A stretch of 64,000 nucleotides of DNA, taken from Pannonibacter sp. GTDB taxonomy: Bacteria; Pseudomonadota; Alphaproteobacteria; Rhizobiales; Stappiaceae. Under the pieces are notes generated by a model that had not been told where the DNA came from, searched no databases, and was given only the letters and a program-made list of their open reading frames with translations. A program made the position numbers and the translations under genes. Below are positions 32,260-35,732 of this stretch, one piece after another; positions within the stretch are counted from its first letter, which is position 1; each line of letters begins with the position of its first letter. The DNA is taken from NCBI RefSeq assembly GCF_051860505.1, contig NZ_JBHYDX010000020.1, forward strand, positions 9,057-73,056. The letters run 5' to 3'.

Positions 32260-33354
32260 TCAGCCCGGCGTGCCAGCAGCGGGGGCTGCCTGACAGATCA
32301 GCGGTCCCGCCGGCTGGAGCGGTGCCCCGGTCAACTCCGCCAGCCGGTCAGCCGGGCGGCCGGTGATGCGGGCCCAGAGCCAGCCGCCGTCGCCCTCACC
32401 CATGCGCCGGTGGCTCAGGTCGCGCTCGGCCGGGATGCCGCTCGCTGCGCCGTCGCGCAGATCCGCCAGGGCAAATTGGAACACATAGTCCGGGGTCATG
32501 CCCATGCGCAGGTCCGAGACGACAAGACGCCCGTCGCGCTCTTCGGCTTTCAGGAAGCCACGGCTGAACCAGGCGAGCTTGGCATAGGCATCGCTGCCTG
32601 CAACGCAGGCGGCAAGGTCCGGACGGCGGGGATGGGTGTAGACTGGCACCGGATCTGGCCCGTCGACCAGCGACAGGTAGACATTGTGATAGGCCTCATC
32701 CTCCAGGGCGATGACCTTCCACATCACCGTATTGAAGGGACCGGCAATCGCAAGCACCTGCTCGGGTACGATCCCGCGAGCGGCAAAGACCTCACGTGCC
32801 CGCGCCTCCATCTGTGACTGGATGACGACACCCCAGCCGAGATAGGCCGTGCTGAGCACCAGGGCCACCGCGACACCCCGGCCAAGCGCCCGGCTCCAGC
32901 CGGAGCGGACCAGCGCCCAGACGGTCACAGCCAGGAGCGGCAGCGTATAGAGCGGATCCGCGATGAACACCGAGCCGACGCCGACCGGATCGGGGAAGAC
33001 CGGCCAGAACAGACGCGTGCCGTAGATCGTCATGGCGTCCAGCAAGGCATGTGTCGACAGGCACAGGAATACCGTCAGCATGGCCAGGAGCCGTGCCTCG
33101 CGCAGGCCCTTGAACAGCCGCACCAACCCCTCGCCCAGCAACGGAGCGGCCAGGGCATGCACAAACAGCGAATGGGTCCAGCCGCGGTGATAGACGAAGC
33201 TGTCCACCGGATCGGCAAAGGGGATGAGGACATCGAGGTCCGGCAAGGTGCCAAGCACACCGCCAATCAACGCCGCCTTGCGCGCGCCAACCTTCGGACC
33301 GATGACAAGGGCGGACACGGCGGCGCCGAGAACAAACTGCGAGAGGGAATCCAT
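32260..33354 (-). CDS. membrane-bound metal-dependent hydrolase (YdjM/DUF457 family) with ~180-aa C-terminal extension
   Basis: Start at the ATG at 33354 (MDSLSQFVLGAAVSA...LPDLDVLIP...HRGWTHSL, the DUF457 signature). The track start is 33447. Confidence 0.7.
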   Translation of the reverse strand: MDSLSQFVLGAAVSALVIGPKVGARKAALIGGVLGTLPDLDVLIPFADPVDSFVYHRGWTHSLFVHALAAPLLGEGLVRLFKGLREARLLAMLTVFLCLSTHALLDAMTIYGTRLFWPVFPDPVGVGSVFIADPLYTLPLLAVTVWALVRSGWSRALGRGVAVALVLSTAYLGWGVVIQSQMEARAREVFAARGIVPEQVLAIAGPFNTVMWKVIALEDEAYHNVYLSLVDGPDPVPVYTHPRRPDLAACVAGSDAYAKLAWFSRGFLKAEERDGRLVVSDLRMGMTPDYVFQFALADLRDGAASGIPAERDLSHRRMGEGDGGWLWARITGRPADRLAELTGAPLQPAGPLICQAAPAAGTPG

Positions 33355-33495
33355 AAACCAGCCATTTTGGCCCAAGATGCGGGCTGAGTTGAGAAACGCC
33401 TTCTGATCTGGCATCTGGCTTACGGCTATACAACCCTTCGGGATCATCGCCGGTCCGGATATCTTAACTCAGCCCCTTCCCTCCCGGACATCCAG

Positions 33496-34527
33496 TCAGC
33501 TGACACCGGCCTTCTTCAGCACCTTTCTGAACCGGGCGGCTACCTTGGCAAAGCCGTCGTCGGTGCCGTGGATCTCGTCGATCCAGTCGGCGACGTCCGA
33601 CATGGCCCCACGACAGTCGACCAGCCAGATGTTGGTCTGTTTCGGATCGCCGGCGACATCACTGAGCATGTCGTAGAGCGCATCGACCAGGAACTTGATG
33701 ATGTTCCGGCGCAAGTCGCGGTCCTTGATCTTGCGCGCATCGAGTGGTTCGCCAAGCCACTCGTTCTTCTTGGCGTGTTTCGGCTTGCGCGGATCGTCGG
33801 GACTGTCCGGATACGGAAACGCGTAATCATAGCCGTGTATGAAAATCGGAACCTTGGCGAACTCCTTGTACTGGCGGATGTTGCCAATGACATGCCGATA
33901 GGCCTCGTCGAGATAGGCGATCTTCTGGGCCAGCACCGCCATGTTGATGTGCCCGGCGACGTCCGTGACATTGCCGTTGAAGTTCTTCAGCATGTCATGC
34001 AGCACGGCCACGCCGGTTTCCGGATCCTCACCGATGATGTCATTTCCAGCGGCGGAGAAGAGGAACCCCTTGACGTGCTTTCGCTGCGTCCACAAGGCCG
34101 CCAGATACTCGGTCCCGTTGTCCCCGGTAGGGCCATAGACCATGTTCTGCGCCGTGTCGCCCGCAGCTCCAACGGAATAAATGAGATAGTCCTTGCCGAG
34201 CTGGTCGATGACGTCCTTCACCAGCAAGGGAAACTGATGCCAGCTGTCCCCCTCCTCGACCAGAACGGGCAGCTTTTCGCCAGCGTTCAGCCGGTTGCGG
34301 AAGGTCACCTGACGGCGCCAGCGCGAGACGCTGTTGCCGATCTGCAGCGCATTCTCGAGTTCTTCGAGATCCGGCGTCATGACGACTTTCTTCGGGTCAG
34401 GCCGCAGTTCGAAGTCAAAGCCGCCGCGTCCCTTGCGCACGACCGACACAGCAAGAATCTGTTCGTCGGTCGTTGCAGGGTCGGTCAGGAGAGCGAGATA
34501 GTCCGGATAGCTGATTTTCTTTGCCAT
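33496..34527 (-). CDS. cytoplasmic SGNH/GDSL-type hydrolase with uncharacterised ~95-aa N-terminal domain
   Basis: 343 aa from the ATG at 34527 (MAKKISYPDYL), with a GGGAGGAA RBS. All four SGNH blocks are present in order: I VLVEEGDSW, II SVGAAGDT, III FSAAGNDIIG, V DWIDEIHGT. No signal peptide. By eye the gene is more A/T-rich than its neighbours. Confidence 0.6.
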   Translation of the reverse strand: MAKKISYPDYLALLTDPATTDEQILAVSVVRKGRGGFDFELRPDPKKVVMTPDLEELENALQIGNSVSRWRRQVTFRNRLNAGEKLPVLVEEGDSWHQFPLLVKDVIDQLGKDYLIYSVGAAGDTAQNMVYGPTGDNGTEYLAALWTQRKHVKGFLFSAAGNDIIGEDPETGVAVLHDMLKNFNGNVTDVAGHINMAVLAQKIAYLDEAYRHVIGNIRQYKEFAKVPIFIHGYDYAFPYPDSPDDPRKPKHAKKNEWLGEPLDARKIKDRDLRRNIIKFLVDALYDMLSDVAGDPKQTNIWLVDCRGAMSDVADWIDEIHGTDDGFAKVAARFRKVLKKAGVS

Positions 34528-34670
34528 GCGTTCCTCCCGAGGAGCACGTACCGGCGTCTGCCGGACTGCCGGTGGCGCCTCGGCAAGGACTAGCCTGCCG
34601 CTGCGGAACATCCTAAACTCTGAATTGCAGGGCGCGCAATACGCATCATATGACCTGCGAAGGAGCGATC

Positions 34671-35732
34671 ATGGGTATTTCGCTGGAACACCTAGGCGAC
34701 AGCCTCATGGAAGCGGCCGCCAAACGCGTCCGTGACCGCCTGCCGGCCCTCGCAAAATCGAAGACCTTCGCCCGGCGCGGTCTGGTTTCTCCGACCGAAA
34801 CCAAAGCCCGCATCACCCGCTATGTCGAGGCCACCAGCCGCGCCATCCTGCCGGAACGTGCGGCGGCCCGGGCTGATATCACAACGGGCCAGGAAGCCCT
34901 GATCGGCACCAACGATCTCTTGTCCATCGAGTTCCTTGAGGCCGGGCTGCTGGCGGCGCGCGCCGTGGGGCGGATCGAGATCATGGGAACCGGCCTTTTC
35001 GGCACGGGCTTCCTCGTCGGAGATCGCCTGCTCCTCACCAATCACCATGTCCTTCCGGCCCCAGCGCTCGCCGGAGCAACGGTGGTCACCTTTGGTCACG
35101 AGGAGCAAAAGTTCGGAACGCCCAGCGTTCCGGCAGACTTTGCTCTTGAACCGGCCCGGTTCTGGCTGACGGATTCCGAGCATGATTTCACCCTGGTCGC
35201 CCTGTCGGCGCAAAGCGATCTGGGCGTGTCCCTCGACAGCTTCGGCTGGCACCCGCTGCATGAGGAAGGCAAGATCCTCGAGGGCCATCCGGTTGCCATC
35301 GTGCAGCACCCGCAAGGCCGGCCGAAAACAATTGCCCTGCACAACAGCTATTTCCTCATCGTCGACAATGCCTCACCTGACGACCAGTTCTGCTGGTACT
35401 CCGGCGATACGGAGCGCGGCAGTTCCGGTTCGCCCGTGTTCAATCGCGACTGGCAGGTGGTGGCGCTGCATCACAAGGCGGTGCCACGCACCAACTCGCG
35501 CAACGAGATCCTCGACAAGTTCGGCAAGACCATGAGCGAGGCGCGCTACAAGGCCAATCCGGATCTGGTCGACTATGTCGCCAACGAGGGCGTGCGTGCT
35601 TCGCGGCTCAGACGAACCATCGCGTCCGCTTCCCTGGGCGATCCGGCTCAAGCCGCGCTGCGCGATGGCCTCATCGCCTTGTGGGACAGCCCCAAGGGCC
35701 GTTCCCTGCGCGCGCGTTTCCCAGCCCCGTGA
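34671..35732 (+). CDS. intracellular trypsin-like (S1/Trypsin_2) serine protease with N- and C-terminal extensions
   Basis: 353 aa from the ATG at 34671, with an AAGGAG RBS. Catalytic triad context: LLLTNHHVL (His), SEHDFTLVAL (Asp), GDTERGSSGSPVF (Ser). No signal peptide. The ~110-aa N-terminal region contains ALIGTNDLLSIEFLEAG. Confidence 0.75.
   Translation: MGISLEHLGDSLMEAAAKRVRDRLPALAKSKTFARRGLVSPTETKARITRYVEATSRAILPERAAARADITTGQEALIGTNDLLSIEFLEAGLLAARAVGRIEIMGTGLFGTGFLVGDRLLLTNHHVLPAPALAGATVVTFGHEEQKFGTPSVPADFALEPARFWLTDSEHDFTLVALSAQSDLGVSLDSFGWHPLHEEGKILEGHPVAIVQHPQGRPKTIALHNSYFLIVDNASPDDQFCWYSGDTERGSSGSPVFNRDWQVVALHHKAVPRTNSRNEILDKFGKTMSEARYKANPDLVDYVANEGVRASRLRRTIASASLGDPAQAALRDGLIALWDSPKGRSLRARFPAP

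Follow-up and report, generated by a model that had tools for sequence, protein, structure and literature searches.

The window, by which we mean the whole 64,000-nucleotide stretch of Pannonibacter DNA that was analysed, contains a pair of divergently transcribed genes encoding an SGNH-type hydrolase and a trypsin-like protease (Table 1). The head-to-head arrangement, the 143-bp divergent gap and the strong ribosome-binding site (RBS) in front of each gene, all described in the first-pass annotation, were confirmed together with the coordinates and the starts, and the codon positions given in Table 1 were checked as well. For both genes the RBS and the lengths of the homologues agree on the start codon, an ATG at 34527 for the hydrolase (GGAGGA 5 nt upstream) and an ATG at 34671 for the protease (AAGGAG 6 nt upstream). 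The hydrolase homologues are 335-345 aa long and begin with MxKISY; a longer hydrolase ORF extending to 34611 is probably not used. The conserved intergenic block hardly differs between the window, Pannonibacter sp. SL95 and P. carbonis; P. tanglangensis retains most of it and P. phragmitetus does not retain it. No sigma-70 consensus promoter was found in the intergenic region, and inspection by eye revealed no LexA box of the alphaproteobacterial type (GTTC-N7-GTTC) there.

Table 1. Coordinates of the divergent gene pair and of its functional elements in the window.
Feature	Position	Strand	Description and basis
SGNH-unit hydrolase CDS	33496..34527	minus	343 aa + stop; ORF, RBS/start, homologue lengths, SGNH fold
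SGNH catalytic core	33499..34272	minus	residues 86-343; invariant columns and Foldseek
Hydrolase core codons	Ser95 34243-34245; Gly123 34159-34161; Asn162 34042-34044; Asp317 33577-33579; His320 33568-33570	minus	
Hydrolase N-terminal alpha/beta domain	34273..34527	minus	residues 1-85; AF2 secondary structure
Divergent intergenic region	34528..34670	none	143 bp; both RBSs and presumably both promoters
Conserved block GGAACATCCTAAACTCTGAATTGC	34605..34628	none	intergenic; candidate promoter or operator; Pannonibacter comparison
Trypsin-like (S1, Trypsin_2) protease CDS	34671..35732	plus	353 aa + stop; ORF, Pfam, invariant triad, AF2 fold
Protease N-terminal helical domain	34671..34850	plus	residues 1-60; candidate regulatory, docking or pro-domain; AF2
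Protease disordered, length-variable linker	34851..34925	plus	residues 61-85; pLDDT 48-55
Protease domain	34926..35597	plus	residues 86-309; Pfam Trypsin_2 and invariant triad
Protease triad codons	His126 35046-35048; Asp172 35184-35186; Ser252 35424-35426	plus	
Protease C-terminal helical extension	35598..35729	plus	residues 310-353; AF2 helices 310-349

The pair indeed lies between unrelated metabolic genes, the flanks being verified as YdjM, AsnC/Lrp, arginase and ornithine cyclodeaminase genes, and there is no space for a third gene because the gaps to the flanking genes are only 48 bp and 14 bp. The same locus is occupied by the pair in five Pannonibacter genomes; such a stable place among metabolic genes is atypical of fast-turnover defence genes and speaks against the reading that we favour below. 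The hydrolase gene had also been described as A/T-rich, as would fit horizontal acquisition. It is so weakly (GC 59.1% vs 63.8% for the window), but its GC3 (0.785) is like that of its neighbours. Composition is thus a weak sign of recent acquisition, and we do not retain it as evidence for such an event.

All four SGNH blocks recognised at first reading are present in the right order (GDSW, G, GND, DEIH) and conserved in 49 homologues. In block I (G93-D94-S95-W96), D94 and S95 are invariant; G123 of block II is nearly so, and block III (G161-N162-D163), which forms the oxyanion hole with block II, is invariant, as is block V (D317-E-I-H320), which carries the catalytic Asp and His. The AF2 model of the hydrolase (pLDDT 87) has the three-layer alpha/beta/alpha SGNH fold and matches the SGNH esterases 7pzh, 1esc, 2hsj and 3bzw with a Foldseek probability of 1.0 (E 1e-5 to 1e-4), as well as 8zbc, also with a probability of 1.0. 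The hydrolase shares with classical SGNH/GDSL esterases (the sialate O-acetylesterase 7pzh, the Streptomyces esterase 1esc, the Ape-type peptidoglycan esterases) the flavodoxin-like SGNH fold and blocks I, II, III and V, with conserved Ser, Gly, Asn and His. Unlike them, it has a private 85-aa N-terminal domain, no signal peptide and an obligate linkage to a protease, and it goes undetected by Pfam and NCBIfam models: no match was obtained at E<=1, Lipase_GDSL_2 (PF13472) included, although distant fused relatives do pass the Lipase_GDSL_2 threshold. The hydrolase matched no PADLOC model, and a sequence-profile search of the PDB with its family returned nothing meaningful. The N-terminal domain, modelled by AF2 as a small alpha/beta domain of about 85 aa, has no recognisable relative and no PDB sequence match, in agreement with its earlier description as unrecognisable. 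This domain and the SGNH core move as one unit, profile positions 1-340 aligning as a block in standalone and in fused proteins.

The complete S1 triad attributed to the second protein also stands, H126, D172 and S252 being invariant in 53 protease homologues, and Pfam Trypsin_2 (PF13365) recognises residues 111-266 with an E-value of 2e-21 (77.5 bits vs a cutoff of 27.6). Pfam detected no nuclease domain in the window protease. In fold, its AF2 model (pLDDT 91) comes closest to the FAM111A protease domain, DegS, SplA and V8, and by sequence the protease groups with the V8/Spl/exfoliative-toxin (glutamyl-endopeptidase-like) proteases. Beyond the catalytic domain, the AF2 model contains as extras only a helical N-domain of 60 aa and a C-tail of 45 aa. 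The N-domain (helices 5-59, pLDDT >90) has an invariant R19 and is largely missing where the SGNH unit is fused N-terminally, tblastn matches then beginning at residues 20-74; the helical C-tail has an invariant W338. In P. tanglangensis, the linker of the protease carries a 44-aa insertion that partly explains the low identity of this protein (64%), and we did not retain the swapping of the protease allele by homologous recombination as an explanation. Both the hydrolase and the protease look catalytically competent.

Neither protein has a signal peptide, a lipobox or a TM helix, as first noted: the maximum Kyte-Doolittle values over 19-mers are 0.88 and 1.25 for the two window proteins, which contain no hydrophobic stretch, and the fused relatives inspected are likewise devoid of signal peptides and TM segments. 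Each protein has one conserved cysteine, C305 of the hydrolase and C241 of the protease, so that there is no disulfide signature.

The two genes co-occur as neighbours across unrelated genomes. Using the hydrolase alone, we recovered 23 genome loci, and in 22 of them a protease homologue lay beside it, divergently or in tandem, or was fused to it; these loci span Pannonibacter, Pseudovibrio, Ruegeria, Roseicyclus, Methylobacterium, Bosea, a cyanobacterial MAG and Phycisphaeraceae. The linkage was also present in all further loci looked up and on plasmids; the hydrolase unit adjoins or is fused with the protease in 34 of the 35 informative loci, in at least four phyla, and the flanks of the pair are unrelated between genera. 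Pairwise identities of the hydrolase and of the protease co-vary (r=0.88 overall, 0.52 between genera). The two genes are thus a genuine functional unit and not chance neighbours. The family is large, with 2763 clusters at 50% identity (486 with E<=1e-30). The pair was found on plasmids, ICE and Tn3 elements and in IS-rich DNA, and its behaviour as a horizontally mobile cassette is supported. No relatives were detected in phages, either by tblastn of 50,697 phage genomes or in an IMG/VR scan, which rules out prophage or phage cargo.

The whole 340-aa hydrolase unit recurs within proteins of 500-1650 aa in which the domain order is shuffled. The fusion partners are proteases (trypsin, caspase and subtilisin domains), nucleases (Endonuclease_NS, EEP, Endonuclease_1) and peptidoglycan hydrolases (Amidase_2/3, Peptidase_M15, GH46), so that all co-fused domains identified by Pfam are degradative enzymes. 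Among the architectures are SGNH-Trypsin, Trypsin-SGNH, Trypsin-EndoNS-SGNH and SGNH-Trypsin-EEP, as well as SGNH-Amidase_3-Trypsin-EEP, SGNH-caspase and SGNH-GH46-S8. The protease class is interchangeable in these fusions (trypsin, caspase or S8). Fusions to nucleases, peptidoglycan hydrolases and alternative proteases fit a role in conflict or cell death. Those with peptidoglycan hydrolases and PG_binding domains, on the other hand, suggest a target outside the cytoplasmic membrane, which argues against the reading that we prefer.

We scanned with Pfam and PADLOC the 145 neighbour proteins from about 15 unfused loci, plus 87 more. Among these 145 + 87 proteins, neither a third gene nor a sensor or immunity gene recurs: no family is present in more than two of the 145 neighbours, and neither a recurrent NTPase family, nor a conserved small neighbour of the immunity-gene type, nor a conserved secretion-system neighbour was observed. 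Known defence systems near the unfused loci amount to one clear case, SIR2-HerA (locus L040), while the PADLOC matches near the fused forms are scattered, single and uncalibrated. In this sample, the expectation that the pair regularly resides in defence islands found little support. The broader assignment to conflict systems holds in part: it agrees with the mobility of the unit and with the fusions to nucleases, peptidoglycan hydrolases and proteases, but not with the scarcity of defence neighbours and the lack of a sensor or third partner. Similarly, the statement that the pair belongs to no named system is correct insofar as PADLOC returned for it only a weak match of the protease domain to RT-Protease_XI, but its protease side seems to fall within a network outlined before as trypsin-NucA "System 3", of which Caulobacter LypC is an example. 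Our literature search turned up nothing relevant on SGNH or GDSL proteins in connection with trypsin, caspase, defence, conflict or abortive infection.

"System 3" is mostly alphaproteobacterial (Kaur, Burroughs, Iyer, Aravind, eLife 2020; PMC7159879). At its core, a trypsin-like peptidase is fused to Endonuclease_NS or encoded beside it, occasionally joined by an S8 peptidase and by co-effectors that attack peptidoglycan; the system is predicted to fire by a proteolytic cascade and to recruit effectors of the latter type (PMC7159879). Precisely this trypsin-EndoNS architecture is seen in relatives of the window protease encoded beside an SGNH unit, those of Methylobacterium, Bosea and R. johnstonii (loci L015, L018 and L040). 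By contrast, the window protease has no nuclease, and the pair has neither EAD1 nor a STAND/Death-like component. No esterase or lipase appears anywhere in the text describing "System 3" (PMC7159879), and GDSL does not occur in the literature listing either.

Caulobacter LypC (CCNA_00579) has a trypsin-like region of about 335 aa that occurs with or without an endonuclease (PMC13236601). Its peptidase activity, and not its nuclease activity, is required for GTA lysis in Caulobacter, the downstream lytic effector having been left open; the C. endophyticus homologue has no nuclease, and lypABC lies outside defence islands (PMC13236601). Compared by described architecture, the window pair resembles LypABC in having a trypsin-like protease and, as it appears, in lying outside a defence island. 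Among CARD-NLR systems, of which the Lysobacter gasdermin system is one (PMC10312443), variants replace gasdermin by a phospholipase or endonuclease effector. The pair differs from both LypABC and CARD-NLR systems in that no CARD-protease or NLR-like STAND ATPase lies near it at any sampled locus, and from the CARD-NLR systems in that the putative effector is an SGNH protein, whereas theirs is a gasdermin or a lipase of the patatin type. A "Nuclease, putative" of Roseibium aggregatum is listed as a structural homologue of LypC (PMC13236601); the partner protease in the R. aggregatum assembly that we examined is a plain 359-aa Trypsin_2 protein, and a link to LypC through this species is not established.

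Hydrolase zymogens cleaved by caspases or trypsins are documented in antiphage defence (PMC12642450, PMC12799240). Like the window pair, these modules (trypsin-MBL/HamM, caspase-alpha/beta-hydrolase, Pepco, EACC1) consist of a co-evolving protease and hydrolase as neighbours, their hydrolase being latent; they also resemble the SGNH family in that one effector family is found with trypsin, caspase or subtilisin proteases and in their modular transfer between contexts. In particular, the trypsin, caspase and S8 partners of the protease-activated MBL effector are interchangeable (PMC12642450), which is mirrored by the swappable partners of the SGNH unit. In the reading preferred below, the window hydrolase would be a zymogen of this kind, activated by site-specific cleavage. 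The SGNH fold is nevertheless not among the ten surveyed effector families, and the genes are head to head instead of effector-upstream in one operon. Unlike nearly all characterised protease-effector modules, moreover, the pair has no sensor (STAND, Hachiman, DRT, Argonaute) or NTPase fused or adjacent to the protease. Polymorphic toxins and the cell-wall, lipid and nuclease effectors of T6SS likewise join variable degradative "warheads" of the amidase, muramidase-like, nuclease and esterase kinds in a single protein, but the SGNH relatives have neither trafficking or pre-toxin domains nor immunity genes beside them, and no secretion system is consistently linked to them. An SGNH partner is thus not mentioned in the closest descriptions, those of "System 3", of Caulobacter LypC and of the recent protease-effector zymogen modules.

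Our preferred reading, to which we give a probability of about 0.45, is that the cytoplasmic trypsin-like protease and a latent SGNH esterase form a self-contained, mobile, protease-gated lytic or death module. The pair would then probably be an undescribed variant of the protease-gated modules for cell killing or lysis known from bacterial immunity, and the conflict that it serves could be abortive-infection-type defence, mobile-element maintenance or programmed lysis. Latency, licensing by proteolysis, the trigger, the bonds on which the esterase acts and the final death or lysis are all inferred. Both proteins would be made without export signals and held inactive, the protease being restrained by its helical N-domain and flexible linker. 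A trigger, sensed by the N- or C-terminal extensions of the protease or by a factor encoded elsewhere, would lead the protease to cleave itself and/or the esterase. Once released, the SGNH unit would hydrolyse ester bonds of the envelope, either in membrane lipids or in O-acetylated glycan or peptidoglycan, and the cell would be permeabilised or lysed; in the relatives, the same chassis would be loaded with more payloads, such as a NucA or EEP nuclease and peptidoglycan amidases or peptidases. If this reading is true, two genes without a sensor are enough to make up such a module, and the pair provides a concrete candidate for the envelope breach by systems of the trypsin-NucA/LypC type. This large family has no Pfam or NCBIfam model and we found no paper on it, yet it is genetically easy to test. 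A wider generalisation, more speculative and in our opinion somewhat unlikely, would be that the 340-aa "N-domain + SGNH" unit is an unrecognised class of protease-licensed lytic effectors that, with a LypC-like trypsin (or its caspase or subtilisin equivalents), makes up the two-gene minimum of a modular "cell-demolition" toolkit, widespread and assembled from esterases, peptidoglycan hydrolases, nucleases and proteases, and is the type of lytic enzyme missing from the Caulobacter LypABC and CARD-NLR pathways.

Divergent transcription and the metabolic flanks in Pannonibacter might suggest that two unrelated housekeeping or scavenging enzymes have become neighbours by chance, but this is hardly credible and effectively refuted by the synteny retained across phyla among unrelated flanks and by the fusion of the two domains in multiple orders. 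The frequent fusions with cell-wall hydrolases leave more room for the main rival reading, that of an exported bacteriolytic or antibacterial enzyme set, attacking the envelope of competitors or acting in the medium, a view that we nonetheless consider unlikely. Delivery would be non-classical, as T6SS or eCIS cargo, in vesicles or by colicin-like lysis of the producer; the SGNH protein would act as a lipase or remove O-acetyl groups from peptidoglycan or glycan, and its fused relatives would be toxins with several heads (lysozyme, amidase or nuclease). De-O-acetylation by Ape-type SGNH esterases sensitises peptidoglycan to muramidases, and such a role would fit here. The fusion partners suit an extracytoplasmic attack (Amidase_2/3, Peptidase_M15, GH46 and a weak, sub-threshold PG_binding_1), the fused nucleases Endonuclease_NS and Endonuclease_1 are of the secreted type, one locus has an eCIS core gene and a PG_binding_1 protein in its vicinity, and arrays of such large lytic proteins occur on rhizobial plasmids. 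However, besides the lack of export signals, of a disulfide signature and of conserved immunity or secretion-system neighbours, no trafficking domain of the PAAR, VgrG, Rhs, MIX, LXG or RTX type was found in the 20 multidomain relatives scanned, and a swappable protease class is not readily explained by a toxin. If this alternative were true, the proteins would represent a new family of signal-less bacteriolytic enzymes.

It is less probable still that the pair is a lysis effector domesticated for a host programme (release of GTA, DNA or vesicles) and not for immunity, the protease being a LypC-type peptidase minus the nuclease and the SGNH esterase the downstream lytic enzyme. This would agree with the need for the peptidase only in LypC lysis and the missing effector, with the nuclease-free C. 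endophyticus homologue and the position of lypABC outside defence islands (PMC13236601), with the trypsin-EndoNS partners of the SGNH unit in three genera and with the stable chromosomal position in Pannonibacter. Against it, neither LypA nor LypB (CARD-NLR) genes lie beside any sampled pair, and carriage on plasmids, ICE and Tn3 elements is more in keeping with selfish or defence cargo than with a host programme.

The fusions from Rhodobacterales end in a C-terminal domain of about 365 aa that has no sequence relative in the PDB. By eye, this domain appears to have an L,D-transpeptidase-like His...SxGC motif and a PG_binding_1-like tail, the match of the latter to PG_binding_1 being sub-threshold (18.6 bits vs a cutoff of 23).

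Following the suggestion of the first-pass annotation that the two genes be checked for co-occurrence across genomes, we scanned the genome collection with the hydrolase as sole query. In 22 of the 23 loci a protease homologue was encoded directly beside it or within one polypeptide with it; ORFs in these and the other fetched loci were called with a simple in-house filter. The two genes stood head to head in Pannonibacter, Pseudovibrio, Ruegeria lacuscaerulensis, Roseicyclus, Methylobacterium and Bosea and in tandem in one cyanobacterial MAG; they were fused into proteins of 1040-1100 aa in a Paracoccaceae MAG, Shimia, two Ruegeria and a Phycisphaeraceae MAG. When metagenomes and genomes were searched for exact protein matches, the divergent pair was recovered on beta- and gammaproteobacterial and other contigs, and tblastn of plasmids found the SGNH unit (the whole block of N-domain and SGNH core, about 340 residues) on 34 of them. 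Flanks outside Pannonibacter had nothing in common with those of the window. The pairwise identities of hydrolase and protease co-varied (r=0.88 overall, 0.52 between genera). The hydrolase and the protease thus form one linked unit, and chance adjacency is excluded by synteny and the fusions. No Pfam family was seen more than twice among the 145 neighbour proteins of the 15 unfused loci, hence there is no conserved third partner, sensor or immunity gene. The sole sampled locus lacking a detectable protease neighbour, L005, is a MAG contig of 5583 bp, with 1.8 kb available upstream of the hydrolase and 2.7 kb downstream.

Coordinates of the pair and of features at homologous loci (L, sampled locus)
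Feature	Location	Strand	Remark
Hydrolase ORF, intact	window 33496-34611	minus	longest frame; inner start ATG 34527 favoured
Protease ORF, intact	window 34650-35732	plus	longest frame; inner start ATG 34671 favoured
YdjM-like gene	window 32260-33447		missing in P. phragmitetus (L004, L013)
24-nt block GGAACATCCTAAACTCTGAATTGC	window 34605-34628		conserved in four Pannonibacter genomes
Hydrolase gene, apparently frameshifted	L013:10001-11027		P. phragmitetus 905_3
Intergenic region enlarged by a GC-rich insertion	L003:9634-10000		P. tanglangensis
Hydrolase without detectable protease	L005:1798-2850		MAG contig
SGNH-trypsin fusion clusters	L022:368-10945; L023:13031-18132; L034:1373-8958		Rhodobacterales
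YcaO genes	L033:19274-20341; L038:1425-3398		few kb from fused SGNH-protease genes
eCIS_core/Gp5-like protein (1214 aa) and AAA ATPase	L031:13051-17065		about 4 kb from the pair

In the window, inner starts were chosen for both genes because of homologue lengths and ribosome-binding sites (GGAGGA ahead of the hydrolase start codon, AAGGAG ahead of that of the protease), and the spacer between them is exactly 143 bp. The gaps to the outer neighbours, 48 and 14 bp, leave no room for a third gene beside the pair in a gene order of trpE/G, YdjM-like, pair, AsnC/Lrp, arginase and ornithine cyclodeaminase (flanking identities checked with Pfam). The structural details of the first-pass annotation were all borne out, from ORFs, spacer and ribosome-binding sites to the triad, the SGNH blocks and the lack of signal or hydrophobic segments. 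Its remark that the hydrolase gene is A/T-rich, hence acquired, is weak: GC is indeed 59.1% vs 63.8% for the window, but GC3 is unremarkable.

With its counterparts in Pannonibacter sp. SL95 and P. carbonis the hydrolase shares 94% identity, and the entire neighbourhood is syntenic. The conserved 24-nt block, outside which the spacer is variable, may be a shared operator or promoter element; the P. phragmitetus spacer is different and AT-rich. In this species trpE/G directly follow the hydrolase in place of the YdjM-like gene, so the left junction of the pair varies within the genus. In strain 905_3 tblastn broke the hydrolase into two HSPs, covering residues 1-135 and 138-342, over a pair of overlapping ORFs; the protease beside them is intact, so that the esterase may be inactivated in that strain. 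In P. tanglangensis the intergenic region is enlarged to about 370 bp, the disordered linker of the protease carries a 44-aa insertion, and this protein is only 64% identical to that of the window, compared with 88-98% for the flanking genes.

The database searches and monomer models proposed in the first-pass annotation assigned both folds. The protease (353 aa) is a clear Trypsin_2 member (E 2e-21) with a triad, His126, Asp172 and Ser252, invariant in 53 homologues. Its confident AF2 model (pLDDT 91) comprises a helical N-domain of ~60 residues, a disordered linker (residues 60-85), a double-barrel protease domain and a helical C-tail; the closest folds are the FAM111A protease domain, DegS, SplA and V8, and by sequence it falls with the V8/Spl/exfoliative-toxin (glutamyl-endopeptidase-like) proteases. 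The hydrolase (343 aa) matched no Pfam, NCBIfam or PADLOC model and no PDB sequence. Its SGNH blocks I, II, III and V show no variation among 49 homologues, and its AF2 model (pLDDT 87) resembles SGNH esterases with a Foldseek probability of 1.0; the N-terminal ~85 residues fold into a small alpha/beta domain without recognised relative. As read from these sequences, both enzymes appear catalytically competent. The pair has no export signals, neither window protein showing a hydrophobic segment or signal-like N-terminus. JGI names single-domain hydrolases (proteins P0022, P0024, P0035 and others) "N-acetylmuramoyl-L-alanine amidase" and single-domain proteases (P0127, P0132, P0136 and others) "endonuclease G"; no such domains are present there, and the names were most likely carried over from fused relatives.

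Searched with a family profile, 1.8 billion representative proteins yielded 2763 clusters with the SGNH unit, 486 of them at E<=1e-30; the complete 340-residue unit, N-domain included, lay at the N-terminus, C-terminus or middle of proteins of 500-1650 aa. The architectures seen when these and plasmid-borne relatives were scanned with Pfam comprised Trypsin-EndoNS-unit, unit-Trypsin, Trypsin-unit, unit-Trypsin-EEP, Trypsin-EEP-unit, unit-Amidase_3, unit-Amidase_3-Trypsin-EEP, unit-DUF2272-Amidase_2-Trypsin-EEP, unit-GH46-S8, unit-caspase (S. meliloti pSymA) and unit-Amidase_3-M15 (R. etli), the last adjoining two large genes with trypsin domains, of which the second bears the annotation trypsin-like/phospholipase D-like. 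The protease partnering a standalone unit in some cases bears a nuclease: it is Trypsin-EndoNS in Methylobacterium, Bosea and R. johnstonii and Trypsin-EEP in Mesorhizobium. The protease class is swappable (trypsin, caspase, subtilisin), and all Pfam-identified partner domains are macromolecule-degrading enzymes or proteases. Inspected relatives had no signal peptide, and the 20 multidomain relatives scanned had no known toxin-trafficking domain. The C-terminal ~370 aa of the fusions at loci L019-L023, without Pfam or PDB sequence match, contain a conserved His...SSQGC (by eye) that recalls the L,D-transpeptidase (YkuD) active site, followed by a PG_binding_1-like tail.

In protease-effector modules, a latent hydrolase is licensed by a partner protease (PMC12642450; PMC12799240). 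The pair is like them in its obligate linkage, Rosetta-stone fusions, swappable protease class, purely destructive co-domains and lack of export signals and immunity genes, and this agreement with the logic of such modules is why we favour a reading of that kind. The protease side of the family resembles the trypsin-NucA "System 3", an earlier comparative-genomic prediction, mostly alphaproteobacterial and at times joined by S8 peptidases and peptidoglycan-attacking effectors, for which firing through a proteolytic cascade was proposed (PMC7159879). The System 3 type is represented in Caulobacter by LypC, a trypsin-plus-endonuclease protein. GTA-linked cell lysis requires the peptidase activity of LypC, not its nuclease activity; its downstream lytic effector is still to be found, one relative is wholly without nuclease, and the operon lies outside any defence island (PMC13236601). 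From these matches we tentatively propose, with a probability of roughly 0.45, that the pair is a minimal form of such a protease-effector or lysis device, killing or lysing the cell. We infer its latency, direction of control, substrate, trigger and outcome as follows: the cytoplasmic protease would restrain itself until activated and would then process its own chain, the SGNH unit or both; the esterase activity of that unit would damage the envelope and kill or lyse the cell.

A rival reading, an exported bacteriolytic pair, draws on how often the family is fused to amidases, M15 peptidases, GH46 and a weak PG_binding_1-like tail, and to nucleases from classically extracellular families. It is weakened in that export signals, trafficking domains, immunity genes and links to secretion systems are all lacking, and we hold it to be unlikely. 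A close cousin of the protease-effector model, a lysis function domesticated in the sense of LypC, seems to us quite improbable. Under the protease-effector reading, the kind of system, protease plus degradative effector and the trypsin-NucA network, is already known; what is new is that the partner is an SGNH unit and that two genes stand head to head with no sensor. Neither Pfam nor NCBIfam has a model for the hydrolase unit. Literature searches turned up no report connecting an SGNH/GDSL domain with a trypsin or caspase protease, whether in bacterial conflict, in defence or in lysis; the text of Kaur 2020 mentions neither esterase nor lipase, and the search listing gives no GDSL occurrence in it.

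As to the defence-island setting raised by the first-pass annotation, known defence genes are not regular neighbours, the 15 unfused loci giving one clear SIR2-HerA system (L040) and generic matches, and the fused forms single matches to several PADLOC candidates, all in uncalibrated counts. Searches of 50,697 phage genomes and of IMG/VR gave no member of the hydrolase family. The sole sampled link to a contractile injection system is L031, where a PG_binding_1 protein directly adjoins the hydrolase. Of the two unrelated loci with YcaO genes, L038 also has TfuA, and L033 contains a pair of RhiA-family genes and an additional Trypsin_2 gene immediately upstream. The Rhodobacterales fusions are surrounded by a set of large unknown proteins that recurs between loci (a TPR protein of ~530 aa, a PAP2-like one of ~400 aa, a weakly S8-like one of ~700 aa and one of 690-830 aa whose C-terminus is weakly OmpA-like); in L034 this cluster is on a Rep3/ParAB plasmid.

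Other hydrolase copies adjoin IS elements or sit on Rep/ParAB plasmids. One identical hydrolase, P0053, is listed in 79 collection blocks (23 contigs were read), and the DNA that carries it includes transposases (Tn3, IS66, IS21), integrases and conjugation genes (TraL/E/K). At L024-L027, Betaproteobacteria from wastewater metagenomes, it lies on Tn3, IS66 and ICE-type DNA, invariably accompanied by the divergent protease, by another Trypsin_2 gene (326 aa) and by four small ORFs that share one direction (166, 230, 188 and 118 aa) and have no Pfam match; this arrangement may be an extended version of the module.
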